A DNA stretch of 64,000 nt from an uncultured Oscillospiraceae bacterium (lineage in GTDB: Bacteria > Bacillota > Clostridia > Oscillospirales > Oscillospiraceae), in assembly GCA_934589675.1 (NCBI GenBank), contig CAKTOF010000003.1, positions 6,865 through 70,864 on the forward strand, read 5' to 3'. The position numbers and the translations under genes were made by a program. The notes under the pieces are model-generated. The model was not told the origin of the DNA, did not search any database, and saw only the letters and a list, made by a program, of their open reading frames with translations. Below, piece after piece: positions 1,957 to 15,440 of the stretch (positions are counted from its first letter, which is position 1; each line of letters starts with the position of its first letter).

Positions 1957-2032
1957 CCGGGTGTGGCGCAGCTGGTAGCGCGCTTGACTGGGGGTCAAGA
2001 GGCCGCAAGTTCAAGTCTTGTCACTCGGACCA
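1957..2032 (+). tRNA. tRNA-Pro (anticodon GGG), CCA encoded
   Basis: 76-nt cloverleaf folded by eye. Acceptor CCGGGTG/CACTCGG (one G-U); D arm GCGC-AGCTGGTA-GCGC; anticodon stem CTTGA/TCAAG with loop CTGGGGG; T arm GCAAG-TTCAAGT-CTTGT; discriminator A plus CCA. Confidence 0.85.
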
Positions 2033-2066
2033 TCGGAGTATCCTTCGGGATACTCCGATTTTTTCT
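2033..2066 (+). terminator. Intrinsic terminator after tRNA-Pro
   Basis: Hairpin TCGGAGTATCC-ttcg-GGATACTCCGA followed by TTTTTTC. Confidence 0.8.
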
Positions 2067-2070
2067 TTTC

Positions 2071-2099
2071 TTGATTAGTTGCCAATATTCGGCTATAAT
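2071..2099 (+). promoter_or_regulatory. Sigma-A type promoter for the islet gene at 2139
   Basis: TTGATT (2071-2076), 17-nt spacer, TATAAT (2094-2099). Lies about 40 nt upstream of the ATG at 2139, which has a GGGGTG RBS. Confidence 0.6.
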
Positions 2100-2138
2100 G
2101 TCTATTAAAGAGTACAGAAACGATAGGGGTGTACATTT

Positions 2139-2720
2139 ATGGATATTATTGTTACTGCTTTATCTGTTGTCTTTTCTGGTGTTGTTGCAACTATGATCAC
2201 TATTTTTTATCAAAAGTTTTCTGGTGAGCGAACTGCAAAACGTAAAATATTTGAAACAGCAGTTTCTTACAGATTTTTCATTTGCGAAGAAGAAAATGTT
2301 AAATTGCTTAACTCAATCGATGTAATTTTTCACAAAGATCGGAAAGTTAGGCAAGCTTGGAAGTCCTATATGGATGAGGCAGATAAGCCTTCTTCAAATC
2401 CACAACTACTTAATGATAAATACATAAAATTGCTTGAAGAAATGGCGCTTTCATGTGGATATAAAGATATACGGTGGGATGATCTCAAGCGCTATTACTA
2501 TCCAATTGGCCTTTCTAATCGAAAAAACGATGATGAAGTTTTGAAAAAGCTGCAAATTAGGGCTGCAGAAAAAACTGCATCCGATACTGCTGACCAGCAA
2601 AATACTCCGCAAAATGAACAGTTCGCTCATCAAATGATGCTTGAACTATTGCCAAGGCTAATTGAAAATCCAGATAGCTTTAACAGACTAATAGAACTTG
2701 CGGATAAAACAAAAAAGTAA
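2139..2720 (+). CDS. Hypothetical protein with one N-terminal TM helix and a K/E/D-rich soluble domain (possibly DUF6680-like; not verifiable here)
   Basis: 193-aa ORF in a markedly AT-rich stretch. N-terminus IIVTALSVVFSGVVATMITIFY is hydrophobic. RBS and promoter are present. No motif recognised with confidence. Confidence 0.6.
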   Translation: MDIIVTALSVVFSGVVATMITIFYQKFSGERTAKRKIFETAVSYRFFICEEENVKLLNSIDVIFHKDRKVRQAWKSYMDEADKPSSNPQLLNDKYIKLLEEMALSCGYKDIRWDDLKRYYYPIGLSNRKNDDEVLKKLQIRAAEKTASDTADQQNTPQNEQFAHQMMLELLPRLIENPDSFNRLIELADKTKK

Positions 2721-2876
2721 TTGTACAGAGCGAAAGTATCAGTTTCATGCCCAGAGTTTGGTATTTTCGAATGAATACCTCTTGCCGACTACCAGCAAAC
2801 CGTTGATATATCTGTGTTTTTTGAGATCCTATGACCATTATCTGACTTTTCACGAAATTCAAACTGGAGATTGAAC

Positions 2877-3203
2877 ATGAACGAGCGAATTGCGGACACA
2901 CTTGATTTTACAGCCTGTAAATACATTCCCGAGCTGTACAAGGAAATGCGCGCAAAGATGGAATGGGACGATGATTTCGGAGAAAACTTGAGCGCGTTGT
3001 GGGATATTCTCACCGGAATGCCTTATAAGGGCGATGATTTTACGATCATCCGTCCGGTCAGATTTGAAAATGTTCCCCATGGGCAAAATGACATCTTCAC
3101 CGAATATGTGGACAAACTGTGCGCAATCTTCCAACGCGCACGGGATCGGTATGGGGATATTACGGCAACCATTCGTTATACTGACTCTGAGAAAAATAAT
3201 TGA
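2877..3203 (+). CDS. Barstar-family ribonuclease inhibitor-like protein
   Basis: Helix motif FGENLSALWDILTG matches the barstar core YGENLDALWDCLTG. Size (108 aa) and beta-alpha order are barstar-like. ATG at 2877 follows the TGGAGA RBS; the ORF track starts at TTG 2871. Confidence 0.7.
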   Translation: MNERIADTLDFTACKYIPELYKEMRAKMEWDDDFGENLSALWDILTGMPYKGDDFTIIRPVRFENVPHGQNDIFTEYVDKLCAIFQRARDRYGDITATIRYTDSEKNN

Positions 3204-3334
3204 TCGAATTATTTAATTTAACGGATAAAAGCTCTTGCTGACTGCCTGTGAACCATTGATATGACAGAACTTTTCCAAGTCCTAATGTCATTTCTCGCAC
3301 AATTTAACAGTGCGCGTCATTTGGCGCTGAAATC

Positions 3335-3376
3335 AAAAAAGCCGCTGCCCGGTTTGACCGGGCGGCGGCTTTTTTG
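3335..3376. terminator. Bidirectional intrinsic terminator (islet genes on + / XRE gene on -)
   Basis: AAAAAAGCCGCTGCCCGG-tttga-CCGGGCGGCGGCTTTTTT: a GC stem flanked by an A-run and a T-run. Confidence 0.8.
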
Positions 3377-3398
3377 CCAGCGGGCGCGGGCAGCGCTC

Positions 3399-3710
3399 TT
3401 ATTTTTTGCTCAGACGCTCGATGAGCGCCAGCACAAGCGCGGCGTCTTCCCCATTGAGCGTGCGAAGACCCGCAAGGGCTTTGCATTCGAGCGCGGGCTG
3501 CGCGGAGCCCTCGTCGAAGAACTGCTGCGGCGTGATCTCAAAATAGTCGCAGATCGCGAAAAACTCCCGGAACGGCGGCAGCGCCTTTCCGGAGGAGATG
3601 TTATAGACGTAGCCCCGGCTGTGGCCGAGGTCGTAGCTCATTTTATATTCCGAGACGCCTTTTTTCAGCCGCAGCTGCGTGATGCGTTCGCGCACGAATT
3701 CTTCCGTCAT
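3399..3710 (-). CDS. XRE-family helix-turn-helix transcriptional regulator (SinR-sized)
   Basis: 103 aa. ITQLRLKKGVSEYKMSYDLGHSRGYVYNISSGKALP is a classic HTH_3/XRE motif, followed by a ~35-aa C-terminal helical tail. RBS is GGCAGGAGG. Confidence 0.85.
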   Translation of the reverse strand: MTEEFVRERITQLRLKKGVSEYKMSYDLGHSRGYVYNISSGKALPPFREFFAICDYFEITPQQFFDEGSAQPALECKALAGLRTLNGEDAALVLALIERLSKK

Positions 3711-3785
3711 GATGGCACCTCCTGCCTCTCACTATCATATCCATTCGACGATTTCGTATAGTCGTAAAATATTTGTCAAAAAGTA

Positions 3786-3814
3786 TTGAATAGCCTAAAA
3801 ATATGTGTTATCAT
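3786..3814 (+). promoter_or_regulatory. Candidate promoter of the sipW operon
   Basis: TTGAAT (3786-3791), 17-nt spacer, TATCAT (3809-3814) preceded by TGT. Leaves a ~160-nt AT-rich leader before the sipW ATG at 3980. Confidence 0.5.
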
Positions 3815-3979
3815 GATGGAAATAATCATAAATTATTGGATGAAATTCCTGATTCGACAAAGATTAATGGACGCGAGTACAATAAATGGAAAAAGAAGGA
3901 GGCTGCGCGCTTGTTCGACGGCTTTTTTGACCGGGCGATGCTACCATTTCTTCAGACCGAGAGAGAAAGGGGTTTCCAC

Positions 3980-4546
3980 ATGAAAAAGGCGATCAGAATG
4001 ATCTGGAACGCGGCCTCGTGGGCGCTCGTCGCGGCCATTGCGGCGCTGGCGGTGCTGCTGGCGGGCGCGCGGCTTGTCGGCCTTCAGGTCTACAGCGTGC
4101 TCTCCGGCTCCATGGAGCCGGCGTACAGAACGGGCGCGATCGTCTATGTGAAGAAAATCGAACCTGAGGACATCGTGCCGGGGACGGTCATCACGTTTGC
4201 GCTCGACGAAAGCACTGCCGCGACGCACCGCGTCGTGGAGGTCGTGCCGGATGAGGCGGATCCGGACGTGCTGCGCTTTCGAACAAAGGGCGACGCGAAT
4301 GACGCGGTCGACGGTGCGCTCGTGCATGAAAGCAACGTCATCGGCACGCCGGTCTGGACGATCCCGTACCTCGGCTACGCGGCAGAATTTCTGCAAAAGC
4401 CGGCCGGGCGGGTGCTGACGGTCGGCATTGGTGCGCTGGCGGCGCTGAGCGTGCTGCTGCCGGAGCTCGTCTGCCGGCAAAAACAGGGAGGGAAACGCCG
4501 AAAGGCTCCCGATATTGAATCTCATCAAGGAGGAACCGGAAGATGA
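3980..4546 (+). CDS. sipW: Signal peptidase I, SipW (archaeal/ER S26B) type
   Basis: MKKAIRMIWN + TM helix; Ser box VLSGSMEP; His box ATHRVVEV; GDAND box; C-terminal TM anchor. The ORF-track start at 3803 is rejected in favour of ATG 3980 with an AAAGGGG RBS. Confidence 0.85.
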   Translation: MKKAIRMIWNAASWALVAAIAALAVLLAGARLVGLQVYSVLSGSMEPAYRTGAIVYVKKIEPEDIVPGTVITFALDESTAATHRVVEVVPDEADPDVLRFRTKGDANDAVDGALVHESNVIGTPVWTIPYLGYAAEFLQKPAGRVLTVGIGALAALSVLLPELVCRQKQGGKRRKAPDIESHQGGTGR

Positions 4547-5097
4547 AAACTAAAACAGGCCGCAGGGCGATCATTGTAACGCTCTGCGCGCTGCTGCTCG
4601 TCGGTGCGTCGGTGCTGGGCACTGTGGCCTACCTGACAGCGACGACGGCGGCAAGGGAAAACACGTTTACATACGGCGACATCGGCCTGACGCTCGACGA
4701 AACGACGGGCGCAAGCTACAAGATCGTCCCGGGCGTGGACATCGAAAAGGACCCGGCCGCTACGGTCGCGGCGGGCAGCGAGGATTGCTGGCTGTTCGTG
4801 AAGGTCGAGCAGACGGGCGAATTCCTGACGGGCGTCAGCTACGAGATCGACGACGGCTGGACGGCGCTGCCGGGCGAGGACGGCGTCTATTACCGTCAGG
4901 TCGACGAAGCGACGACCGAGCAGACGTTTTCCGTCCTCAAGGGCGACAAGATCACTGTGAGCACGGATATTACGAGTGCCCAGATCGCCGCGCTGACGGG
5001 CGACAACAAGACCCCGAAGCTCAAGTTCACAGCGTATGCCGTGCAGCAGGCCGCGGTCGACACGGCGGCGGAGGCATGGGCCATCGTCAGGCCGTAA
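4543..5097 (+). CDS. TasA/camelysin-like secreted protein with SipW-cognate signal peptide (paralogue 1)
   Basis: 184 aa. Signal ...LGTVAYLTATTAARENTFTYGDIGL; C-terminal AVQQAAVDTAAEAWA motif shared with the other three paralogues. ATGA overlap with sipW. Confidence 0.75.
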   Translation: MKTKTGRRAIIVTLCALLLVGASVLGTVAYLTATTAARENTFTYGDIGLTLDETTGASYKIVPGVDIEKDPAATVAAGSEDCWLFVKVEQTGEFLTGVSYEIDDGWTALPGEDGVYYRQVDEATTEQTFSVLKGDKITVSTDITSAQIAALTGDNKTPKLKFTAYAVQQAAVDTAAEAWAIVRP

Positions 5098-5123: not shown

Positions 5124-5882
5124 ATGAAACGGAACATCATCATCAGCTGCCTGTGCCTTGCGCTGGCCGTCATGGCAGCGGCGGGCGCGTCGCTTGCGTA
5201 CTTCACGGACACGAAGGCGGCGGAGAACACGTTCACCGTCGGCGACGTGAAGATCGACCTGCTTGAGTCGGGCCTGCACCGCGAGAACGCGGGCTACGAG
5301 ACCGGCGAAACGCCCGCTCCGAGCAACGCCGAGCTCTGGTCGGACGTCGAAAAGCTCGGCTCGGGCAGCGACAGCCCCTATCGGGCCGGTGACACATTTT
5401 ACACCGACGACCAGATCAAGGCCGACGCCGCAGATTACACCTGCGAGAACGTCCGTCTGAATCCCGGCCAGAGCTACCACAAGATGCCCTACGTTGTGAA
5501 TACGGGCAAAAACGATGCGTATATCCGCATCCGCGTCATGCTCCCGGCGGCGCTTGACACGGCGGTGCTCAATTCCAGCATGTATACAACGACGGCTGTG
5601 CGCAGCGGCGAGTTCACGATGGCCTATGACGACTCCGGCGCGGTCGTGCGCGATGGCGTGGCCTACAACGTCTACACATTTACGCGCACAGCTGCGCTCA
5701 AGCCCGGCCAGATGACGTACTGGAACGTCTGGGGTACGGTGCACATGGACGCGGACGTCACCGGCGAGGAGCTTTCCGACCTTCTGCCGGAAGGGACGTT
5801 CTCCGTGCTCGTCGAGGCAGATGCCATTCAGGCGGACGGCTTTGCCGACGCGGCGGCGGCATGGGCCGCATTCGACGCTTGA
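5124..5882 (+). CDS. TasA/camelysin-like secreted protein with SipW-cognate signal peptide (paralogue 2)
   Basis: 252 aa. ...GASLAYFTDTKAAENTFTVGDVKIDL is the textbook SipW-cognate motif. C-terminus is DAIQADGFADAAAAWAAF. Confidence 0.8.
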   Translation: MKRNIIISCLCLALAVMAAAGASLAYFTDTKAAENTFTVGDVKIDLLESGLHRENAGYETGETPAPSNAELWSDVEKLGSGSDSPYRAGDTFYTDDQIKADAADYTCENVRLNPGQSYHKMPYVVNTGKNDAYIRIRVMLPAALDTAVLNSSMYTTTAVRSGEFTMAYDDSGAVVRDGVAYNVYTFTRTAALKPGQMTYWNVWGTVHMDADVTGEELSDLLPEGTFSVLVEADAIQADGFADAAAAWAAFDA

Positions 5883-5967: not shown

Positions 5968-6534
5968 ATGAGACGAAGAATTCTGCTTGCAGCGGCGCTG
6001 GCGCTGCTCGTTCTCAGCACCGCCGGAACGGCGGCGTATTTCAGCGCGGAGGCGCGTGCGGAGAATTTTATCACGAGCGGCAAGGTCGACATCGCACTGC
6101 GCGAGTGGGCCGACGAGGGGGAGACGCTGCCGTATGAGGACGTGTCCGGCGTCATGCCGGGAACGGCGGTCACAAAGATCGCCGTCGTGGAGAACACGGG
6201 CAGCGCGCCCGTCTGGGTGCGCGTGCGGCTGGAAAAAAGCGTCACGGGCGCGAACGGCGCGAAGCTGGACGCATCGGCCGTTGGGCTTGCGCTCGGGAAC
6301 CGCGGCTGGACGGACGGGGATGACGGGTACTATTACTATGACCGTCCGCTCGCACCCGGAGAGACGACGGAGCCGGTGCTGACGGGCGTGGAGTTTTCGC
6401 CGGAGATGGGCAATGCCTATCAGGGCGCGCGGGCGCAGGTCGACGTGCGCGCCTGTGCCGTGCAGACGGCGAACAACGGCGCGTCCGCGCGCGAGGCGGC
6501 CGGATGGCCGGCCGCCGAAGCAAAGGGGGAATGA
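5968..6534 (+). CDS. TasA/camelysin-like secreted protein with SipW-cognate signal peptide (paralogue 3)
   Basis: Start moved to ATG 5968 (RBS GAGGGGAGG). MRRRILL...GTAAYFSAEARAENFITSGKVDI; MPGTAVTKIAVVENTG; GNAYQGARAQVDVRACAVQ. Confidence 0.75.
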   Translation: MRRRILLAAALALLVLSTAGTAAYFSAEARAENFITSGKVDIALREWADEGETLPYEDVSGVMPGTAVTKIAVVENTGSAPVWVRVRLEKSVTGANGAKLDASAVGLALGNRGWTDGDDGYYYYDRPLAPGETTEPVLTGVEFSPEMGNAYQGARAQVDVRACAVQTANNGASAREAAGWPAAEAKGE

Positions 6535-6537
6535 CGG

Positions 6538-9500
6538 ATGAATCGGCGAATCACTGCGCTTGCGCTGTGCGCCGCAACGCTTTTGGCCGTGCTGCCGTGC
6601 GGGACGGCCGCGGCGGAGACGGCGTCCTGGATCAAATGCGCCGGTGAGGCTGCGGAAACGGTTATGCTGGACGCGGCGCAGCGGCAGACGATCACGGCGC
6701 GCACGGACGCAGACGGGCAGTGGCAGATCGCCTGCGGCGACATTTGGGCGGACATTGCCGGACAGACGGAAAAGACGCTTACCGTGAGCTACGCGCTCAT
6801 TGCCAGCGCGCTCGACGGGGAAAGCGCCATGCTCCGCTATGCCTGCGGCGGACAGGTGATTGCGGGGCCGGTCACGGTCACGCTTGCGCCGGCGGACGCG
6901 GACGTGCCGGCGGACGTACAGCGCGCGGCAGCAGCAGAGCCGGCGGCATCGGACGAGGCGGCACTGACGGCGGAGGCCGCGCCGCAGGCGGGGCTGTACA
7001 CGGTCACTGTTGAGTACATGCTCTCTTCCGGCGAGCGCGCCGCGCCGAGCTGGACGGCGCAGCTGAGCGCCGGCAGCGCGCTGCGCCAGACGGTGCTCAG
7101 CCCCGCCGTCACGGGCTATGCGCCGGATCAGGAGGCAGTCGAGCTCGACATTGAGAGCCTGGAGGGCGACCGCAGCATCGTCGTGACCTATTATCCGGCC
7201 GAGACGACGTTCACCGTTCTGCACTATTACCAGCGTGTGGACGCAGACGACTATGAGCTTGCCCGGAGCCAGACCCGCACCGGCCGGACAGGCGACCCGG
7301 TCGGCGACGGCCTTACGGACACGCCGGAGGGCTTCTATGCAATGCGGTACGACGCGTCGACGCGCATCGCAGCCGACGGAAGCACGGTCATTGAGCTCTA
7401 TTATGACCGCTATTACTACCTTATGCGCTTCGACCTCGGCGGCGGCTACGGCGTCGAGCCCGTATACGCGCGCTACGGCGCGCCGATTGCGGCGGGGACT
7501 CCGACGCGCGCAGGCTATACGTTCCTCGGCTGGGATCCGCAGGTGCCGGAGACGATGCCCGCGGAAAACGCAACGCACACCGCCCTCTGGAGCGAGGGCA
7601 CGGCGGGCTTTACCGTTGTGTTCTGGTATGAAAACGCCGATGACGACGGCTATTCCGCCGCCGGGACGTACACGCCGGCCGATGTGCCGCCCGGAACGAC
7701 GGTTTCAAGTGAGGATTATCAGAATCAGGCATTCGACGGCCGCGACGCGGCGCATTTTACATACAATGCTGCAAAGGCGGAGACTGCCACCGTTGCGGGC
7801 GACGGGTCGGCGGTGCTGAATGTCTTTTTTTTGCGGAATGAGTATACGCTGACGTTCAAAGGCAGATACACCACATACAAGACGATCACGGCGAAGTACC
7901 AGCAGGACATCCATGTAGAGTTTCCGATCAAGGATGGAAATCAGACGATCTGGTGGACGGTTCCGGACGACTGCACAACGTATGTTCCCGGCAATGAGCT
8001 TGGCAGCATCGACATCATGCCGGGTGAGAATATCACGTTTACACGCGCAGATGCGACCAGCAGAACGTGGCTGTGGTACTACGTCGAGACGCTCCCGGGC
8101 GAGACGGCGGACGCGACATACGGCGGGAAGAGCTTCAAGCTCTATAAGAAGATCAACTGCGACGGGACGTCCACGCTGACGAGGAAAGAGGAGTTCCACG
8201 CCATCCGCGGCTTTACGCAGTGGCGCTCTGACCCGGTGTTTGATTCAGAAGGCAAGGCAGAGCAGAAGCGGAACAACTATTTCTACTACGCCCGCGATTC
8301 CTACACGCTGCAGTTTTTCAATTACAACGCCTATGTGACAGACAAAGAGGCGAGCGTGCTCTACGAAGCGCCGCTCGGCGGCTATGACTTCACGCCGGAC
8401 TGCCCGGCGGGCCTTGAAAAGGACGCATATGTCTTTGACGGCTGGTACCGCACGGCCGGGTGCTATGAGGGCTCGGAGGCGGATCTTTCCGAGATGACGA
8501 TGCCCGCGTCTGACCTCATTTTGTACGCGCGCTGGACGCCGAAGAGCCACCGCGTGCGGACGTACCTCAGCGAGAGCGCATTGACTGCGGGCGGCGCGGC
8601 GCTCGGCACATGGGATACCGTCCCGCACGGCACAGCCGTTGAAAGCCCGCCGGACGATCCGGCGCGGGAGGGCTATCGCTTTGTCGGGTGGTTTTACCGC
8701 GGGGCGGACGGCGCCGAGCACGCGTATGACTTTTCCATCCCCGTCACGCGCGATCTGGAGCTTTACGCGAAGTGGAGCTCCGACACGCTCGTGGCCTACA
8801 CCATCCGCTATCGGCTCGCAGACGGCACGCACGTCGCGCCCGACACAACGGGCTACGCGCCCGGCGGCGCGACGCGCACATTCGCGGCCAAGGCCGGGAC
8901 GGAGCTGTACGCAGGCTATCAGACCGGCTATTTTCCGAATGTGGCCAGCCACTCGCTGACGATGGACTTAGACGACGCGGCGCAGAACGAGTTTACATTC
9001 ATCTACGAACCGGCCGGAAAGCTGCCATACACCGTGCGGTATCTCGAGCGCGGAACGAATGCCGCGCTGCACGAGGAAAAGCAGGCTGAAACATCCGACG
9101 CCATCGTGACGGAGCGCTTCGTCGCCGTGGACGGCTACGCGCCGGACGCGTATGAAAAGCGGCTCATCCTCACGACGGACACAAACGAGCTGATCTTCTG
9201 GTACGACCGCGACGACGCCCACGCGCCGGTGCGCACGGTGCACTATGTGCAAAACGTCGCGGGCGACGGGTACACCGTCTACCGCGCGAGCGAGGACGCC
9301 GGCGGGGTCATCGGACAGACCTATGACGCGGCGCCGCTTGCGCTTGCGGGATTTACTTATCAGGCGGAAAAGAGCACGCCGTCCGGCGTGCTGACGGCGG
9401 CAGGACTGCTGCTTACGCTGTATTACGACCGCGCCCTGTACCCCTACGAGGTGCGCTATCTTGAGCTCGGCACGGAGAAGCCGCTGGCGAATCCTACCGA

Positions 9501-9981
9501 AGGCATGGCGCGCTATGGCGCGATCCTGACGTTTACGGCGGCGGACATCGCGGGCTTTGAGCTCGTCAGCACGGCGCAGCAGTCGATGACGATCGCTATT
9601 GAAGATCCCGCGGACGCGGCGAAGAAGAACGTGCGCACGTTTTACTACCGCGCGTGTCCGGCGGCGCTGACCGTGAAAAAGTCCGGCTGCGCGGCCGAGG
9701 ACGCCGGAGCGTGCTTCCTGTTCACCGTCACGGGTCCGGGCGGCTTTCAGGCGCAGCTGAGCATTGTCGGAAACGGCTCAGCGACGCTGGCAGGCCTCCC
9801 AGCGGGGACGTACACCGTGCGCGAGGAGACGGACTGGAGCTGGCGCTACACGCCGGAGGACGCGGAGTTGACCGTCGTGATCAGAAACGGCGGGACAGGC
9901 GAGGCGATTTTCCAAAACTCGCGCACGGATGACCGCTGGCTGACCGCCGACGCGCGCTGCGACAACCACTTTACCGGCTGA
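6538..9981 (+). CDS. Large secreted repeat adhesin (MucBP-like and Listeria-Bacteroides/InlB B-type repeats, C-terminal Cna-B/SpaA-like beta-sandwich), no anchor signal
   Basis: 1147 aa. Sec signal ...LPCGTAAAETA. At least 3 repeats of GY(T/R)F(L/V)GW / YVFDGWY type. Several ~70-aa Y-x-V-x-Y ... GY ... repeats (YTVRYLERGT.., YEVRYLELGT.., YTIRYRLADGT..). C-terminus is LTVKKSG...LAGLPAGTYTVREE. Confidence 0.7.
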   Translation: MNRRITALALCAATLLAVLPCGTAAAETASWIKCAGEAAETVMLDAAQRQTITARTDADGQWQIACGDIWADIAGQTEKTLTVSYALIASALDGESAMLRYACGGQVIAGPVTVTLAPADADVPADVQRAAAAEPAASDEAALTAEAAPQAGLYTVTVEYMLSSGERAAPSWTAQLSAGSALRQTVLSPAVTGYAPDQEAVELDIESLEGDRSIVVTYYPAETTFTVLHYYQRVDADDYELARSQTRTGRTGDPVGDGLTDTPEGFYAMRYDASTRIAADGSTVIELYYDRYYYLMRFDLGGGYGVEPVYARYGAPIAAGTPTRAGYTFLGWDPQVPETMPAENATHTALWSEGTAGFTVVFWYENADDDGYSAAGTYTPADVPPGTTVSSEDYQNQAFDGRDAAHFTYNAAKAETATVAGDGSAVLNVFFLRNEYTLTFKGRYTTYKTITAKYQQDIHVEFPIKDGNQTIWWTVPDDCTTYVPGNELGSIDIMPGENITFTRADATSRTWLWYYVETLPGETADATYGGKSFKLYKKINCDGTSTLTRKEEFHAIRGFTQWRSDPVFDSEGKAEQKRNNYFYYARDSYTLQFFNYNAYVTDKEASVLYEAPLGGYDFTPDCPAGLEKDAYVFDGWYRTAGCYEGSEADLSEMTMPASDLILYARWTPKSHRVRTYLSESALTAGGAALGTWDTVPHGTAVESPPDDPAREGYRFVGWFYRGADGAEHAYDFSIPVTRDLELYAKWSSDTLVAYTIRYRLADGTHVAPDTTGYAPGGATRTFAAKAGTELYAGYQTGYFPNVASHSLTMDLDDAAQNEFTFIYEPAGKLPYTVRYLERGTNAALHEEKQAETSDAIVTERFVAVDGYAPDAYEKRLILTTDTNELIFWYDRDDAHAPVRTVHYVQNVAGDGYTVYRASEDAGGVIGQTYDAAPLALAGFTYQAEKSTPSGVLTAAGLLLTLYYDRALYPYEVRYLELGTEKPLANPTEGMARYGAILTFTAADIAGFELVSTAQQSMTIAIEDPADAAKKNVRTFYYRACPAALTVKKSGCAAEDAGACFLFTVTGPGGFQAQLSIVGNGSATLAGLPAGTYTVREETDWSWRYTPEDAELTVVIRNGGTGEAIFQNSRTDDRWLTADARCDNHFTG

Positions 9982-9992
9982 GGAGGGAGACC

Positions 9993-10556
9993 ATGGACGA
10001 AACGAGAGGAAGAGCGCGCGCCGCTGCGGCGCTTCTGGCGCTGACCCTGCTCGCCTCGGCGGGCAGCGGCGCAACGGCCGCGATGCTCTCACGCCGGTCG
10101 GAAGCGGCGGAGAACGTGTTTTCCTATGCGCTTGTGGACTGCTCGGTCGACGAGGAATTCAACGGGCGCGTCAAGAAAAACGTGCAGGTGACAAACGACG
10201 GCACGACGGACGCATTCGTGCGCGCGGCGGTCATCATAAACTGGCTGAACGCAGACGGAACGGTCGCTGCCGCCGTCCCAGCGGGGTATGGCTATGAATT
10301 GACGCTGAACCCGGACGAAACGTGGCTCACCGGGGCGGATGGGTACTATTATTATCCTGCGCCGCTCGCGCCCGGACAGTCGACGCAGGGCAGCCTGCTC
10401 ACATGTAGAGTCACGCAGCCGGAGGACGCGCAATACACGCTCTCGGTGCAGATCATCGCAAGCGCCGTCCAGAGCGCGCCGGAGGCGGCGGCCGAGGAGG
10501 CGTGGGGCGTCGCGGTCGAGGACGGCCGCATCACGAAAACGGGGGTGAGCGGATGA
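9993..10556 (+). CDS. TasA/camelysin-like secreted protein with SipW-cognate signal peptide (paralogue 4)
   Basis: 187 aa. ...GATAAMLSRRSEAAENVFSYALV. Shares DGYYYY-x-PLAPG(Q/E)(S/T)T and AVQSAPEAAAEEAWG with paralogue 3. Confidence 0.7.
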   Translation: MDETRGRARAAAALLALTLLASAGSGATAAMLSRRSEAAENVFSYALVDCSVDEEFNGRVKKNVQVTNDGTTDAFVRAAVIINWLNADGTVAAAVPAGYGYELTLNPDETWLTGADGYYYYPAPLAPGQSTQGSLLTCRVTQPEDAQYTLSVQIIASAVQSAPEAAAEEAWGVAVEDGRITKTGVSG

Positions 10557-11755
10557 GACGGATCGCTGCGGCGGCGCTTGCCGCGCTGCTCACGCTTGCC
10601 ATGCTCCCGGCTGCGCTGGCTGCGCCGGGCGGGACGGTCACATACCGAGGGAGAAGCGCGGGCTTCGAGTTTTCACCCGGCAGCGCGGACGCCGCGACCG
10701 ATCTCTTCTCGGCGTTCCGGGACATCATGCCCGGCGACGCGCGGGAGACGACGGTGACCTTCAAGAACGCAGCGTCGGACTGTGACTATGTCGAACTCTA
10801 TCTGCGCGCGGAGACGAAAAGCGGGGAGGACTTCCTCTCGCAGCTCCATCTGCGCGTCGAAACCGGCGGGACGGCGCTGTTTGACGGCCCGGCTGCCATG
10901 GCGCTCTCGCGCGTACACCTCGGGACGGTCCGCGCGGGGGATTCAATGGCGCTTTCCGTCAAGCTGACGGCGCCGAAGGAGCTCGGCAATGAGTTTTCCA
11001 TCCGCGCGGGCGAGGTGGACTGGATCTTTTCGGTTTCGGCGTTCAACGCCACGCAGCTGACCGCGCGCAAGGTCTGGGGCGACGGCAGCGCTGCGCACAG
11101 CGGTGAAGTCGTCCGCGTGCAGCTGCTGAAAAACGGCAGCGCTGACCGGACGGCGGAGCTGAGCGCGCGCAATGGCTGGGCCTATACGTTCGACGGGCTG
11201 GACGCGGACGATGCGTGGACGATCGAGGAGCTGGACGTCCCGGCGGGCTACACGGCCTCTTACCAGACGGAAGGCGGCGTCGTGACCATTTTGAACGCGC
11301 CCGTCCGCACGCCCGACCTGCCGGTCACTCCGCAGCCAAGCCCACCTGCTCCTGAACCGGAGCCTGAGCCGGATGGCCCGGACGCGCCGGAGGCGGGCGC
11401 GCAGCTCACGGTCGTCAAGCGCTGGGACGGCGAAAGGATGCATCCGGACAGCGTGAATGTGACGCTCTATGACGGCGAAACGGCCGTCGAGACCGTCCGC
11501 CTGACGGCCGAGGACGGCTGGACGCACACATGGACGGAGCTTCCCGCCGCGGGCGACTACGCTGTGCTCGAGTCGGACATCCCGCGCGGATTCTACCCGT
11601 CGTACTCGGTGGAGGGCGGCGACGTGACGATCACGAACGCGGCGTCGCTGCTTGATACGGGCCGGAGCGTGGACGCGTGGTATCTGGCGGGCGCGGGCGC
11701 GGCGCTGATGCTGATCGGCGCGCTCGTGCGGCGTGTCAGGCGGCGCGATGCGTAG
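10553..11755 (+). CDS. Cell-wall sorting-signal protein: N-terminal TasA-like domain + two Cna-B repeats + LLDTG sorting signal
   Basis: ATG 10553 makes an ATGA overlap with the previous stop. Sec signal ...PAALAAPGG. Two Cna-B type repeats (KVWGDG...TILN and VVKRWDG...TITN) are separated by a PQPSPPAPEPEPEPDGPD linker. C-terminus is LLDTG + hydrophobic stretch + RRVRRRDA. Confidence 0.75.
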   Translation: MRRIAAAALAALLTLAMLPAALAAPGGTVTYRGRSAGFEFSPGSADAATDLFSAFRDIMPGDARETTVTFKNAASDCDYVELYLRAETKSGEDFLSQLHLRVETGGTALFDGPAAMALSRVHLGTVRAGDSMALSVKLTAPKELGNEFSIRAGEVDWIFSVSAFNATQLTARKVWGDGSAAHSGEVVRVQLLKNGSADRTAELSARNGWAYTFDGLDADDAWTIEELDVPAGYTASYQTEGGVVTILNAPVRTPDLPVTPQPSPPAPEPEPEPDGPDAPEAGAQLTVVKRWDGERMHPDSVNVTLYDGETAVETVRLTAEDGWTHTWTELPAAGDYAVLESDIPRGFYPSYSVEGGDVTITNAASLLDTGRSVDAWYLAGAGAALMLIGALVRRVRRRDA

Positions 11756-12377
11756 ACGGGCAGGAGGTGTGCTTTTCGTGCTCGGCGCGGCGGTTTTGAC
11801 GGCGGCCTTCATCCGCGGCGCGCAGACGGCGGCGGATGACGCCGCGGCCGGGCAGGCGTCAGCGGAGATCCTGACGCAGTTTTATGCGGCCATGGAACGG
11901 ACGGCGGACGAGGCAGCGGACAGCGCAGCGGATGAGGCGGCGGACACGCTGCCCGCGCCGCTTGCTGCGGCAGCTTCGCAGGCGGCACCGTCGCCCGCGG
12001 ACGCGGAGACGCCGGAGTGCATCGGCGCGCTGGTCATCCCGGCCATCGCGCTGGCGCTGCCGGTGCTGGCGGACTGGTCGGACGGGAACCTCGAGCTTGC
12101 GCCCTGCCGCCAATTCGGCGCGCCGGAGACGGATGACCTTGTCATCGCGGGCCACAATTACCGCAGCCAGTTTTCCCGGCTTGGGGAGCTCTGCGCCGGC
12201 GATGCGCTCACATTGACAGACCGCGAGGGCAGAAGCCACACCTACACCGTCGCGGAAACGGCGACCGTCGCGCCGGACGACGTGGCGGCCGTGCAGAGCG
12301 CGGCATATCCGCTCGTGCTCTACACATGCACGCCGGGCGCGAAGGCGCGCGTGGCCGTATTTTGCAATTACGCATAG
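11748..12377 (+). CDS. Sortase family transpeptidase
   Basis: TM anchor, Ala/Asp-rich linker, catalytic His (VIAGHN), Cys (LVLYTCTP) and Arg (KARVAVF). ATG 11748 overlaps the preceding stop; GTG 11733 is an alternative start. Confidence 0.8.
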   Translation: MRRRAGGVLFVLGAAVLTAAFIRGAQTAADDAAAGQASAEILTQFYAAMERTADEAADSAADEAADTLPAPLAAAASQAAPSPADAETPECIGALVIPAIALALPVLADWSDGNLELAPCRQFGAPETDDLVIAGHNYRSQFSRLGELCAGDALTLTDREGRSHTYTVAETATVAPDDVAAVQSAAYPLVLYTCTPGAKARVAVFCNYA

Positions 12378-12378
12378 A

Positions 12379-12408
12379 AAAAGGGCAGAGGCCGAGCCTC
12401 TGCCCTTT
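12379..12408. terminator. Bidirectional intrinsic terminator between sortase and the convergent yoaK-like gene
   Basis: AAAGGGCAGAGGC-cga-GCCTCTGCCCTTT. Confidence 0.8.
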
Positions 12409-12410
12409 GC

Positions 12411-13094
12411 TTATTTCTCTTTGCGCTCTCCGGGAATCATCAGCAGCAGGCTGCACAGCAGCAGCGCGCACGACAGCCAGATCGTTCCGTGCCCCAGAAC
12501 CGGGACAAGGCGGCTGCCGAGGCCTGCGCCGAGGAAAAATGCGAAAATGACGCCGAAATAGCGCGCCGCGCGCGGCAGATCGTTCGGATTTTTCGTCCGG
12601 ACGAAGGCGCACAGGGCCTCGACGCCGCTTCGGAGGTTGCCGATGCACATCGTGCTTGCAAACGGATGGCCGCCGACCTTGCGGAACGCCTGCACCTGCA
12701 TGGCGCACGCAAATGAGACGAGCGCATTTGCCGCCATGTCGAGCGCGGCCGGGAAGAATCCGACGGCAAACAGCAGCGCGATCTCACCGAGCAGCACGAG
12801 CTGCCGCCAGTGGACGGACGAGCGGTGCTGGAAGCGGAAGCGGATGAGCTCGCTGGCCAGCACGCCGAGCGCGAAGGATAAGACCGGGATGAGATAGTGC
12901 ATCGCCGCGGCCCAGCTGCCGGAGAAAATGTTCGTGCTGAGCAGGACGATGTTGCCCGTCTGCGCATTGGCAAAGACGTGGCCGCGCGAGAGGTAGGAAT
13001 ACGCGTCCTGCAGCCCGCCCGACAGCGAAAGAAACAGCACGGTGATCATAGCCTCGGACATCTGGCCGCGCGCGCGGCCTGCTTTTTGCTTCAT
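12411..13094 (-). CDS. YoaK/DUF1275 family membrane protein
   Basis: 227 aa, about 6 TM. GGLQDAYSY...FANAQTGN motif is typical of DUF1275. RBS AAGGAGG. Confidence 0.6.
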   Translation of the reverse strand: MKQKAGRARGQMSEAMITVLFLSLSGGLQDAYSYLSRGHVFANAQTGNIVLLSTNIFSGSWAAAMHYLIPVLSFALGVLASELIRFRFQHRSSVHWRQLVLLGEIALLFAVGFFPAALDMAANALVSFACAMQVQAFRKVGGHPFASTMCIGNLRSGVEALCAFVRTKNPNDLPRAARYFGVIFAFFLGAGLGSRLVPVLGHGTIWLSCALLLCSLLLMIPGERKEK

Positions 13095-13166
13095 GGCGGC
13101 GCCTCCTTTTCTTACCGTTCGAAATTATACGCACCGGAGCGATAAAATGCAACTGTCGCGCGCGCA

Positions 13167-13196
13167 GAAAAAGGGCAGCGGCGCGCCGCTGCCCTT
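13167..13196 (-). terminator. Intrinsic terminator of the DUF1538/PII-like operon
   Basis: On the minus strand: AAAGGGCAGCGGCG/CGCCGCTGCCCTTTTT. Confidence 0.75.
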
Positions 13197-13200
13197 TGGT

Positions 13201-13860
13201 CTATTTGTCCAGCAGGGAGAAGCCTGCCACGTCCGTCACCGGAAGCGAGAACGTGATGGCGCCGGCGTCCGAGCCGGGGCCGGCCTGCTCCAAAATGGCC
13301 TGCATGATGGCGGCTTTTTCGCCTGCGCGAGCGACGATGAGGATCAGCTCCTTTTCCTGCGCGAGAGACAGGCCGAAGAACTTCTCCGATTTGGCGTTGC
13401 CCGTGCCTTTCCCGTGCAGGATCGTCCCGCCGGCTGCGCCTGCAGAGCGGGCGGCATCCATGACGGCGTCCGTGTAGCCGGCGTTTGCAATGGCGAGCAC
13501 GAGCTCGTAGTCAAATTCCGCCGCAGGCGGCTGAGTGAGCGGCGCATCGCCGCGAAGATATGACAAGGTCCTTCCTCCTCCTACGCTTTTCATTGGGACG
13601 ACAACGGCGATGCCGCCGCCCGGGGTGTCGAGATAGAGCTGCCGGCGCATGGCTTCAAGGAGCGCGATCGTTTTTTCCTCAGTCGTGACGCTGAGCACGA
13701 CGCGCCGCTCGCGTGAGACGATGCCGAGCAGATCCAGCACGCTGCGCGAAGCCGTTCCGCGCCCGTACAGCGCGAGATTGAGCGGCACGTCCAGCGACCG
13801 GCACAGGGTGAGCATCGGCTCGAGCTGTTCGCGGCTTAAAATGCTGACAGTCAGATTCAT
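13201..13860 (-). CDS. Tandem P-II-like (nitrogen regulatory protein-like) domain protein
   Basis: Two ~100-aa halves with a PII-like pattern (second half: ELVLAIANAGYTDAVMDAARSAGAAGGTILHGKGTG). ATG 13860 forms an ATGA overlap with the upstream DUF1538 gene stop. Confidence 0.65.
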   Translation of the reverse strand: MNLTVSILSREQLEPMLTLCRSLDVPLNLALYGRGTASRSVLDLLGIVSRERRVVLSVTTEEKTIALLEAMRRQLYLDTPGGGIAVVVPMKSVGGGRTLSYLRGDAPLTQPPAAEFDYELVLAIANAGYTDAVMDAARSAGAAGGTILHGKGTGNAKSEKFFGLSLAQEKELILIVARAGEKAAIMQAILEQAGPGSDAGAITFSLPVTDVAGFSLLDK

Positions 13861-15440
13861 ACGGCAGCCTCCCAAAGTTCGATGACATCCGTGTCGCCAA
13901 AGGCGGCGTCCTGCCGCTCCGGACCGCCAGCGCGGCGGACGGAGATGGCGCCCATGATCTGGATGGAGATGAGCGGCATCATTGCGACCATGGCGACGAC
14001 GCCGAACGCGTCGCGCAGCGGATCGCCTCCGAGCGCGGTCGACGCGCCCATCATAAATTGCAGCATAAACGTCGCCGTCATCGGGCCGGAGGCGACGCCG
14101 CCGGAGTCAAACGCGATGGCGGTGTAGAGATCCGGCACGAAGAACGAAAGCCCGAGCGCGACCGCGTAGCCCGGCACGAGGAACCACAAAGCGGACAGCC
14201 CCGTGACGACGCGCAGCATGGCAAGCCCCATGGCCAGCGCGATGGCGAGCGACAGGCTCAGCCGGATGGCGCGGCCGGAGATGGCGCCGGAGCTCACGTC
14301 CTCGATCTGCTTCTGCAGCACCGTCACGGCCGGCTCAGCCGAGATGATAAAATAGCCGAGCAGCATGGACAGCGGGATGAGCAGGTATTTCGTCCATCCC
14401 GAGGCCAGCGACGCGCCGAGCAAGCTGCCGAGCGCGGAAAATCCGACGTTTACGCCCGTGAGGAACAGCACAAGGCCGACATAGGTATACGCGATGCCGA
14501 GCAGGATGCGCCAGAGCGCGCGGCGCGGCATACGCAGGCTCACGGCCTGAAACAGCAGGAAAATGAGAAAGATCGGCGCGAGCGACACGGCCATCTCTTT
14601 CATGTAGACCGGGATGGCGTCAAGATATGCCCGGCCGATGGCACCCGTGTCGGGCAGAGCGGCGGCCTGCGCAGCGCCGGCGTGCGTGCCGCTGCTCTGA
14701 TAGAAAAATCCGAGGATGAGCACGGACATGATCGGCCCGATGGAGCACAGCGCCACAAGGCCGAAGCTGTCAGACTCGGCGTTGCGGTCGCTTCGGATGT
14801 GTGCCACGCCGACGCCGAGCGCAAGGATGAACGGTACGGTCATCGGCCCGGTCGTCACGCCGCCGGAATCGAACGCGACGCTCAGAAAATCCGCGTCTGC
14901 CAGCGAGGCAAGGATAAATACGACGGCGTAGAACGCGATGAGGAGCCAGCGCAGGCGGATGCCGAGCAGAACGCGCACCATGCACACGGCAAGGAAAAAT
15001 CCGACGCCGACGCCGACGGTGAGCAGCAGCACGGTGTTGTCGATGTGCGGCACCGTCTCGGCCAGCACCTGAAGATCGGGCTCAGCGACCGTGATGGCCG
15101 CGCCGAGCAGAAAGCTGACTGCGACGATGAGCAAGGGCTTTCTTGAGCGCGTGAGCGCGGAGCCGATGCGGTTGCCGATGGGCGTCATGCTCGTCTCTGC
15201 GCCAAGCGTGAAAAGCCCCATGCCGACAATGAGAAGCAGCGCGCCGAGCAAAAACGAAACCATGAGCCCCGCCGGAACGGGCGAGATGGTCAGGCACAGC
15301 ACAAGCACGATGATGAGAATGGGCAGAACCGAGCGCGCGGCGCTGCGGATCTCCGCCCGGATGTGGGAAGTCGTCTTGAATAAACGGATGCGGAAGCAGC
15401 TCCTTTCCGGAAAAATTATGGCTGCGGCAGCCATTTCCAT
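13857..15440 (-). CDS. Membrane protein with two fused DUF1538 domains
   Basis: Internal duplication visible (AFDSGGVTTGPMTVPF and AFDSGGVASGPMTATF; AEPDLQVL and AEPAVTVL). Start is uncertain (ATG 15440 or 15434). The first ~94 codons of ORF 13857..15722 are rejected as non-coding. Confidence 0.65.
   Translation of the reverse strand: MEMAAAAIIFPERSCFRIRLFKTTSHIRAEIRSAARSVLPILIIVLVLCLTISPVPAGLMVSFLLGALLLIVGMGLFTLGAETSMTPIGNRIGSALTRSRKPLLIVAVSFLLGAAITVAEPDLQVLAETVPHIDNTVLLLTVGVGVGFFLAVCMVRVLLGIRLRWLLIAFYAVVFILASLADADFLSVAFDSGGVTTGPMTVPFILALGVGVAHIRSDRNAESDSFGLVALCSIGPIMSVLILGFFYQSSGTHAGAAQAAALPDTGAIGRAYLDAIPVYMKEMAVSLAPIFLIFLLFQAVSLRMPRRALWRILLGIAYTYVGLVLFLTGVNVGFSALGSLLGASLASGWTKYLLIPLSMLLGYFIISAEPAVTVLQKQIEDVSSGAISGRAIRLSLSLAIALAMGLAMLRVVTGLSALWFLVPGYAVALGLSFFVPDLYTAIAFDSGGVASGPMTATFMLQFMMGASTALGGDPLRDAFGVVAMVAMMPLISIQIMGAISVRRAGGPERQDAAFGDTDVIELWEAAV

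Follow-up and report, generated by a model that had tools for sequence, protein, structure and literature searches.

A candidate wall-anchored base subunit for a TasA-like surface fibre in an uncultured Oscillospiraceae bacterium

The attachment of TasA-type biofilm fibres to the cells that carry them is unsettled: Bacillus subtilis uses TapA, whose role is debated, Bacillus cereus uses a different protein, CapP (BC1280), both systems being explicitly sortase-independent, and BsaA of Clostridium perfringens looked membrane-anchored in strain 13. At the same time, genes of the BsaA/TasA family often accompany genes for LPxTG proteins, SpaA and sortases (PMC11580942, a Melville-lab preprint). 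In most C. perfringens strains, a BsaB-like LPXTG protein is encoded next to srtB in the sipW-bsaA operon, the wall anchoring of BsaA oligomers being called "speculative", and BsaA itself carries an Asn-Glu-Lys isopeptide "lock" (PMC11580942). Bacterial abpX loci have also been described with LPXTG anchors and sortases, together with AlphaFold 3 models of anchor-fibre donor-strand oligomers (10.64898/2026.01.04.697558). The general idea of LPXTG anchors in TasA/BsaA/AbpX loci is, therefore, already predicted in two preprints. The subject of the present study is a stretch of 64,000 nucleotides from contig CAKTOF010000003.1 of an uncultured Oscillospiraceae bacterium (assembly GCA_934589675.1; this whole stretch is called the window below). 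It contains a co-directional cluster of genes for a SipW-type signal peptidase, three TasA-like paralogues (TasL1, TasL2 and TasL3), a protein of 1147 amino acids (aa), a fourth paralogue (TasL4), the protein in question, here called the anchor, and a sortase. The original prediction, made from the letters of the window alone, described the anchor as a sortase substrate with a TasA-like N-terminal domain (N-domain) and regarded it as a likely base for a TasA-type fibre.

The N-terminal domain and its distant relatives

The relationship of the N-domain to TasA was not visible to ordinary searches. None of the Pfam, NCBIfam and PDB sequence models recognised it, BLASTP against paralogues 3 and 4 gave nothing significant, and the matches that phmmer gave in PDB and Pfam at E <= 10 were all spurious. 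A precomputed match to PF12389 was carried by 0 of the 120 best members of the anchor-domain family, and a word-indexed homologue search with the N-domain retrieved just one near-identical fragment. The family became accessible when 1.84 billion representatives were searched exhaustively with HMMER, which yielded 1013 clusters at E <= 1e-3 and 463 at E <= 1e-10; its size is about 1000 clusters at 50% identity, and no source-given name was found for it in the sequence collection.

Comparison of family alignments carried the assignment. When an alignment of 84 anchor-domain family members (A1) was compared by hhalign with an alignment of 121 homologues of paralogue 3 (the TasL3 family), a probability of 95.3% and a P value of 2.1e-8 were obtained over 104 columns. 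The two motifs that the original prediction had singled out as TasA hallmarks were precisely those paired, MPGD…N…YVxLYLR of the anchor with MPGT…EN…WVRVRL of the TasL3 family and LGNEYxxRxGEVDWxF with MGNxYQxxxxxVDVxA, and the controls (two reversed and eight column-shuffled alignments) gave P values of at least 0.04, which places the resemblance beyond chance. An independent 12-sequence anchor alignment from related loci led to the same family (95.9%, P 6.4e-9), and the paralogue 2 group was also reached (87%, P 4e-6). For the anchor domain, no significance was reached with the alignments of TasL1 and TasL4, which are small, so it is by way of the TasL3 and TasL2 groups that the domain is linked to the superfamily; the paralogues align with each other far better (P 1e-13 to 1e-31), which makes the anchor domain the most divergent of the set. 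Moreover, the profile hidden Markov model (HMM) of the TasL3 family directly matched 182 of 270 anchor-family proteins, collinearly and with a best E value of 7e-8, and the anchor-family profile, searched against all PDB sequences, ranked TasA (5of1/5of2, 8aur) first, with a collinear second segment and an E value of 0.15 that is not significant alone.

Structure prediction pointed in the same direction. The AlphaFold 2 (AF2) model of the N-domain, built with the family alignment, is all-beta, with a predicted local distance difference test score (pLDDT) of 92.8 and a predicted template modelling score (pTM) of 0.82; single-sequence AF2 prediction of the full anchor protein (pLDDT 52) was too poor for use. 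In a Foldseek search of the PDB, ranks 1–5 were taken by TasA (5of2, 5of1 and 8aur) and the archaeal bundling pilin AbpA (7ueg), with E values of 1.6e-4 to 4.5e-4 and a probability of 1.00, so no unrelated fold emerged. The landmarks PGD…N, DFLSQ and GN.Y…F.F are common to the anchor domain and TasA. The N-domain is a genuine but distant TasA-superfamily jelly-roll that has been overlooked by the curated models, and the TasA-like nature originally proposed for it was borne out by profiles and structure alike.

Sorting signal, sortase and gene context

The rest of the protein corresponds to its first description: the open reading frame (ORF), Sec signal, two Cna-B repeats, linker and LLDTG tail all have their place in the residue map (Table 1). 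The SipW-type signal model TIGR04088 did not match the anchor, whereas TasL2 and TasL3 match it. The Cna-B model PF05738 matched in two stretches (87.7 bits against a cut-off of 22.3, E 7e-25), both repeats possess the isopeptide-type positions Lys, Glu and Asn (VxKxW … E..[VI]PxG[YF] … TIxN), and VxExxxPxGY is conserved in the Cna-B domains of anchor-family members.

In the sorting motif LLDTG, a Leu replaces the Pro of LPXTG, and the T and G are kept. The anchor contains no C-terminal LPXTG pentapeptide and is matched by no NCBIfam anchor model; the hydrophobic segment, the positive tail and the N-terminal signal peptide of sortase-anchored proteins are all present. LLDTG is shared without exception by the 14 full-length members of the 90% cluster of the anchor and recurs in a 94% homologue and an 81% orthologue; this conservation among close orthologues refuted its reading as a strain-specific substitution of LPXTG. 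In the wider family, a tail resembling a sorting signal terminates about 85% of the 150 best representatives, and two classes of tail can be distinguished, L[IL]QTG continuing with QLNWPxP and xPxTG continuing with D. Cna-B domains and an LIQTG end characterise 108 of the 119 top profile-search matches, and short members end in xPKTGD. The departure from LPXTG noticed in the original prediction can thus be refined: a large subclass, with the consensus LIQTGQLNWP, is set apart by Leu or Ile in the second position. The loss of the proline characterises the class, and lineage specificity is confined to the Asp at position 3. A literature text search for "LIQTG" returned nothing relevant.

The sortase encoded downstream retains the His (HNY), Cys (LYTC) and Arg that are conserved among its orthologues, in which APCRQFG is invariant, and it belongs to no described class by score. 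It lies under the cut-off of every NCBIfam class model from A to F (40.5 bits against 140 for SrtD, 40.1 against 160 for class C) and under that of the generic model TIGR01076 (36.7 against 39.35), and the nearest solved structure, B. anthracis SrtA (2kw8, E 5.6e-6), is distant. With an HMM of this sortase family, a member was found immediately 3' of the L[IL]xTG anchor in 8/8 independent loci, in two of which the anchor has no Cna-B stalk (L019 and L020 in the numbering of the surveyed loci), and in 0/5 independent xPxTGD loci, even at E <= 10; from these counts, the Fisher probability of the split is about 8e-4. The dedicated sortase specificity suggested from the sorting motif fits this distribution, since only the L[IL]xTG subclass precedes the conserved sortase. 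The predicted pairing of a dedicated sortase with this signal has good comparative support, which is short of proof of specificity.

A sortase next to a Cna-B protein could also be a pilus polymerase, forming Thr-Lys bonds between anchor copies or between the anchor and TasA-like subunits. The Cna-B domains, the weak matches of the anchor to the pilin-related models GramPos_pilinD3 and SpaA, and the weak, sub-threshold class C score of the sortase would agree with such a sortase-polymerised pilin. This is nevertheless very improbable and was rejected: the anchor contains no YPKN-type pilin motif and not even a YPK, it is the sole ORF with a sorting-signal-like C-terminus, both within its operon and across the 64-kb window, and the sortase score is far under the class C cut-off. 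In addition, many family members consist only of a TasA-like domain and a sorting signal.

The context of the family was surveyed in eleven genome loci and eleven further contigs, which were screened with the window proteins and the family HMMs. The anchor gene stands directly 3' of TasA-like genes wherever upstream sequence exists, from Clostridia to Saccharibacteria, and it is the final structural gene of a SipW and TasA-like operon in all loci with enough flanking sequence. A SipW-type signal peptidase is co-encoded in the window operon and in L004, L006, L010, L011, L012 and L020. The gene order in Clostridia is SipW, TasL1/2/3, the big repeat protein, TasL4 and the anchor, with TasL4 always immediately 5' of the anchor gene, and that in metagenome-assembled genomes (MAGs) of Saccharibacteria is SipW, three TasL genes and the anchor. 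Three anchoring formats occur across the family, namely a sortase signal combined with a stalk, a sortase signal that has no stalk, and a membrane helix. The last is found in the anchors of Saccharibacteria, in which the stalk and the sorting signal give way to a linker rich in Cys, CNCPTCCGCSQC, and a membrane helix at the C-terminus; these loci have no operon sortase, and the sortase-family HMM finds none in them. The helix is preceded by NA[IK]T[LI]D in L004, L005, L006 and L009 (about 9945–10800 in L004) and by TADTG in the saccharibacterial locus L010 (8037–8642). TasA-type fibres in the episymbiotic Saccharibacteria may merit a look.

A TasA-like domain (residues 76–240), an anchor domain (274–420) and a VPQTGD sorting-type signal follow one another within one ORF of L011. 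This Rosetta-stone-type fusion argues, on the evidence of gene structure, for a physical partnership between the TasA-like domain and the anchor domain, and its layout (acceptor, linker, N-terminus of the next subunit) would be, by analogy, the topology of engineered donor-strand-complemented pilins. As a separate observation, the frame (L011, 9182–11254) runs uninterrupted past VPQTGD and its hydrophobic segment into another TasA-like domain, which has a SipW-type signal of its own; the frame is either a true fusion or a set of adjacent genes with no intervening stop codon.

The survey also bears on a reading in which the anchor is a stand-alone wall adhesin of the MSCRAMM (microbial surface components recognizing adhesive matrix molecules) type, that is, a ligand-binding beta-sandwich on a Cna-B stalk that binds a host or matrix ligand and never enters a fibre, its TasA fold reflecting ancestry only. 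A binding domain with a Cna-B stalk and a sorting signal is the standard layout of a Gram-positive adhesin, the signal peptide of the anchor is ordinary rather than SipW-type, and the AF2 monomer is complete and confident on its own, N-terminal strands included. However, AF2 usually returns self-complemented monomers for donor-strand subunits, so the completeness of the model is no argument for independence. The strict position after TasA-like genes across very distant lineages and three anchoring modes, the natural fusion in L011 and the missing stalk in many family members make such an adhesin unlikely.

Proposed role at the base of the fibre

The preferred reading, to which a probability of about 0.7 is given, is that the anchor is the cell-wall-anchored base subunit of the TasA-like (BsaA/AbpX-type) surface fibre encoded in the same operon. 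A base or anchor for a TasA-type fibre, as first proposed, is strongly supported by context, namely the position after TasA-like genes in SipW operons and the L011 fusion. According to established knowledge of sortases and Cna-B domains, the anchor would be exported by the Sec pathway via its ordinary signal peptide and retained in the membrane by the hydrophobic segment and basic tail, after which the adjacent sortase would cut after Thr369 and transfer it to peptidoglycan; the two Cna-B domains and the Pro-rich linker would then make up a stalk that crosses the wall and owes its stiffness to internal Lys-Asn isopeptide bonds. From the gene context and from the work on TasA, BsaA and AbpX, it can further be proposed that the distal jelly-roll would join SipW-processed TasA-like subunits by donor-strand complementation. 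The fibre, non-covalent or isopeptide-locked, would thereby be covalently tethered to the wall, and the 1147-aa repeat protein would probably be an adhesin carried by it.

The weakest step of this proposal concerns polarity. The anchor is preferably seen as the strand donor, which would place its free N-terminal strand TVTYRG in the groove of a TasA-like subunit, because the L011 layout (acceptor, linker, anchor N-terminus) and the N-terminal strand fit this arrangement; the predicted beta-strand TVTYRG begins three residues past the signal cleavage site.

Several observations weigh against a role of the anchor at the base of the fibre. PF12389, which is present in many TasL3 homologues, and TIGR04090 matched neither the whole anchor nor the isolated N-domain, even at E <= 10. 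The Foldseek TM-scores are only 0.40–0.44, under the usual comfort zone for the same fold, with E values of about 1e-4. The N-domain lacks the SipW-type N-terminus (AYFTD…ENxFTxG) that is the source of the donor strand in the paralogues, as well as the Lys that stands six residues before the N-x-G motif in all four of them; the missing ENxF donor motif and Lys speak in particular against the donor polarity. The structures predicted here are of monomers only, and the interaction of the anchor with the TasL proteins is thus inferred. Finally, deletion of srtB in C. perfringens strain 13 left BsaA polymers and pellicles unchanged (PMC7395162), and the BsaA oligomers of that strain behaved as membrane-anchored rather than wall-anchored, with the caveat that strain 13 has no LPXTG-bearing BsaB.

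A related possibility is that the anchor is an assembly chaperone or nucleator like TapA or CapP, which would start or catalyse the polymerisation of TasA-like subunits at the surface and would not bear load in the fibre. TapA and CapP are wall-associated accessory proteins required for TasA/CalY filaments, and the anchor is, in the same manner, a single-copy minor component at the end of its operon. Still, the PDB searches gave no TapA match by sequence or fold, and covalent wall linkage with an isopeptide-type stalk suits a mechanical tether better than a catalyst, which makes a purely nucleating function quite improbable; nucleator and tether are not mutually exclusive roles.

If the anchor is the wall-linked base of the fibre, a wider proposal can tentatively be made, though it is somewhat doubtful as a whole. 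A hybrid fibre may be common in gut Clostridia, in which an enzyme-free donor-strand polymer of SipW-processed TasA-like subunits, with a very large adhesin, would be covalently fixed to peptidoglycan by an unclassified sortase family predicted to recognise proline-less L-[IL]-x-T-G signals (typically LIQTGQLNWP). The anchor module would be a general attachment solution for TasA-type fibres, with a membrane-helix version in Saccharibacteria.

The family offers a concrete and testable anchor, a TasA-fold domain on a sortase-linked stalk, at the ends of SipW operons in many gut Clostridia. The L[IL]xTG signal and one unclassified sortase family can serve as a clean substrate-enzyme pair for work on sortase specificity, and a whole branch of the TasA superfamily proves to be overlooked by the present Pfam and NCBIfam models.

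Operon features and comparison with known systems

The features of the operon are collected in Table 1. The genes around the anchor are tightly packed: its ATG shares bases with the TasL4 stop codon (ATGA overlap) and is preceded by the purine-rich, ribosome-binding-like GGGGGTGAG, and its stop is overlapped by the start of the sortase gene.

Table 1 Features of the fibre operon and of the anchor protein in the window
Feature	Coordinates	Strand	Details
Promoter-like sites	3773..3883	+	Sigma-70-like, 9–10 of 12, just upstream of SipW gene; consensus matches only
SipW-type signal peptidase I	3980..4546	+	NCBIfam SipW model E 1e-28; TIGR02228 95 bits vs cut-off 52
TasL1 (TasA-like paralogue 1)	4543..5097	+	Weak SipW-type-signal and BsaA model matches; hhalign vs TasL3 family 97.9%
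TasL2 (TasA-like paralogue 2)	5124..5882	+	TIGR04088 SipW-dependent signal E 1e-8; hhalign vs TasL3 family 99.9%
TasL3 (TasA-like paralogue 3)	5968..6534	+	Paralogue nearest to anchor domain; BsaA family TIGR04090 E 1e-12
1147-aa secreted repeat protein	6538..9981	+	Flg_new/List_Bact_rpt E 1e-18; SpaA/DUF5979-like C-terminal domain
TasL4 (TasA-like paralogue 4)	9993..10556	+	TIGR04090 E 5e-7; hhalign vs TasL3 family 99.4%
Anchor gene	10553..11755	+	Intact ORF, 400 codons and stop
Ordinary Sec signal peptide	10553..10621	+	Residues 1–23, read from sequence; AxA cleavage site (…PAALA, then APGG)
TasA-superfamily jelly-roll domain (N-domain), ~140 aa	10622..11047	+	Residues 24–165; hhalign, AF2, Foldseek
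N-domain motif 1			DIMPGDARETTVTFKNAASDCDYVELYLRAE (DIMPGD…YVELYLRAE), residues 57–87
N-domain motif 2			ELGNEFSIRAGEVDWIFSVSA, residues 143–163
Cna-B repeat 1 (stalk)	11060..11287	+	Pfam PF05738, residues 170–245
Pro/Glu-rich linker	11330..11383	+	PQPSPPAPEPEPEPDGPD, residues 260–277
Cna-B repeat 2 (stalk)	11402..11626	+	Pfam PF05738, residues 284–358
Sorting signal	11648..11752	+	LLDTG 366–370, 22-residue hydrophobic segment 371–392, RRVRRRDA 393–400
Sortase	11733..12377	+	Start GTG 11733 or ATG 11748, either overlapping anchor-gene end; PF04203 E 7e-16
Terminator-like hairpin closing operon	12380..12408	+	13-bp stem, 8 GC pairs, T-rich tail; directly after sortase

All four TasL paralogues carry, besides the Lys already mentioned, an EN.F motif shortly past the SipW-type signal. 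The 1147-aa protein has no sorting signal; it has an equivalent operon position in other loci and shares with its counterparts there a conserved C-terminal tail (9900–9981 of the window is its C-terminus). This tail, …F.NT…..WL[ST]……N.[FW]…, follows the last Ig-like domain (FQNSRTDDRWLTADARCDNHFTG in the window) and is present in all homologues of the protein (L001, L002, L007, L008, L012, L016, L017 and L018). Its end is similar to ENxFTxG, the donor-strand motif in the TasA-like paralogues, and the tail might, judging from this likeness, serve to dock the adhesin onto the fibre.

Upstream of the operon, a tRNA-Pro(GGG) gene (1957–2032) is followed by an islet of 43% GC within the 63% GC window (1957–3800), which encodes a DUF6680 protein (2139–2720), a Barstar-family inhibitor (2871–3203) and an XRE-type helix-turn-helix protein (3399–3710, minus strand) and extends as far as the promoter region of the operon. 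The islet has the appearance of a small insertion of foreign DNA, or of what is left of such an insertion.

Among the related loci, the sortase gene of L012/L013 is closely followed by genes for a phage integrase and an AbiEii toxin (12683–14636), and the fibre operon may there be located in or beside mobile DNA. The closest orthologue in the genome collection (81% identity) is on a 5.9-kb contig, L001 (CAVFYN010000231.1), of a MAG labelled Bacteroidaceae; this contig is probably mis-binned, because an operon of 60+% GC with sortase, Cna-B and SipW genes would not be expected in Bacteroidaceae, and in its record a run of N joins two ORFs into one. A decayed operon is seen in L014/L015 (8677–10795), which has kept only TasL4, an anchor of the SPKTGD type and, of the big protein, a 131-aa fragment; no SipW or major subunit genes are nearby. 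Additionally, a 2.9-kb ENA contig (P0001) encodes a 242-aa protein that is 92% identical over 72% of the 182-aa N-terminal query and continues with unrelated sequence, probably as a result of a frameshift or an assembly chimera.

New in the present study are the large anchor-domain family, unseen by Pfam and NCBIfam, and its placement in the TasA superfamily; the three anchoring formats are also new, as is the connection of the proline-less L[IL]xTG signal with one unclassified sortase family. The nearest published proteins are the LPXTG anchors of the AbpX/TasA superfamily (e.g. A0A1M6GRE1 of Clostridium amylolyticum), which, like the anchor, have fibre genes of the TasA superfamily and genes for a dedicated signal peptidase and a sortase as neighbours. 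Neither a Cna-B stalk nor a proline-less L[IL]xTG signal is mentioned in the paper on the AbpX loci, nor is a pairing of a sortase with a particular signal, and the evidence of that paper is computational only. The BsaB-like protein of C. perfringens shares with the anchor the relationship to TasA/BsaA, a sorting motif and an adjoining sortase gene, but its motif is a canonical LPXTG, the sortase gene is divergent and upstream of sipW instead of overlapping and downstream as here, and no stalk has been described for it.

TapA and CapP resemble the proposed anchor in role, as minor wall-associated accessory proteins of TasA/CalY fibres that are implicated in anchoring and in the start of assembly, and by this analogy the anchor would probably work as they do. 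Neither of them, however, is a sortase substrate or has a stalk of Cna-B repeats, and it was TasA, not TapA, that was returned by the PDB searches. TasA (5of1, 5of2, 8aur) and AbpA (7ueg) belong to the same jelly-roll fold family as the anchor domain and are its best structural matches; compared with them, the anchor domain is shorter (about 140 aa), reaches a TM-score of only about 0.4, follows an ordinary signal peptide and is a module of a multidomain wall protein rather than a free major subunit.

Two further parallels can be drawn from established knowledge of other fibres. The basal pilins of sortase-assembled Gram-positive pili would be comparable with the anchor in their Cna-B domains, their wall linkage and their role as a dedicated last subunit, and the PapH terminator of chaperone-usher pili offers an analogy for a donor-strand fibre that is ended by a special subunit. 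In contrast to both, donor-strand polymerisation in which only the attachment is mediated by a sortase would be a hybrid of the two logics.

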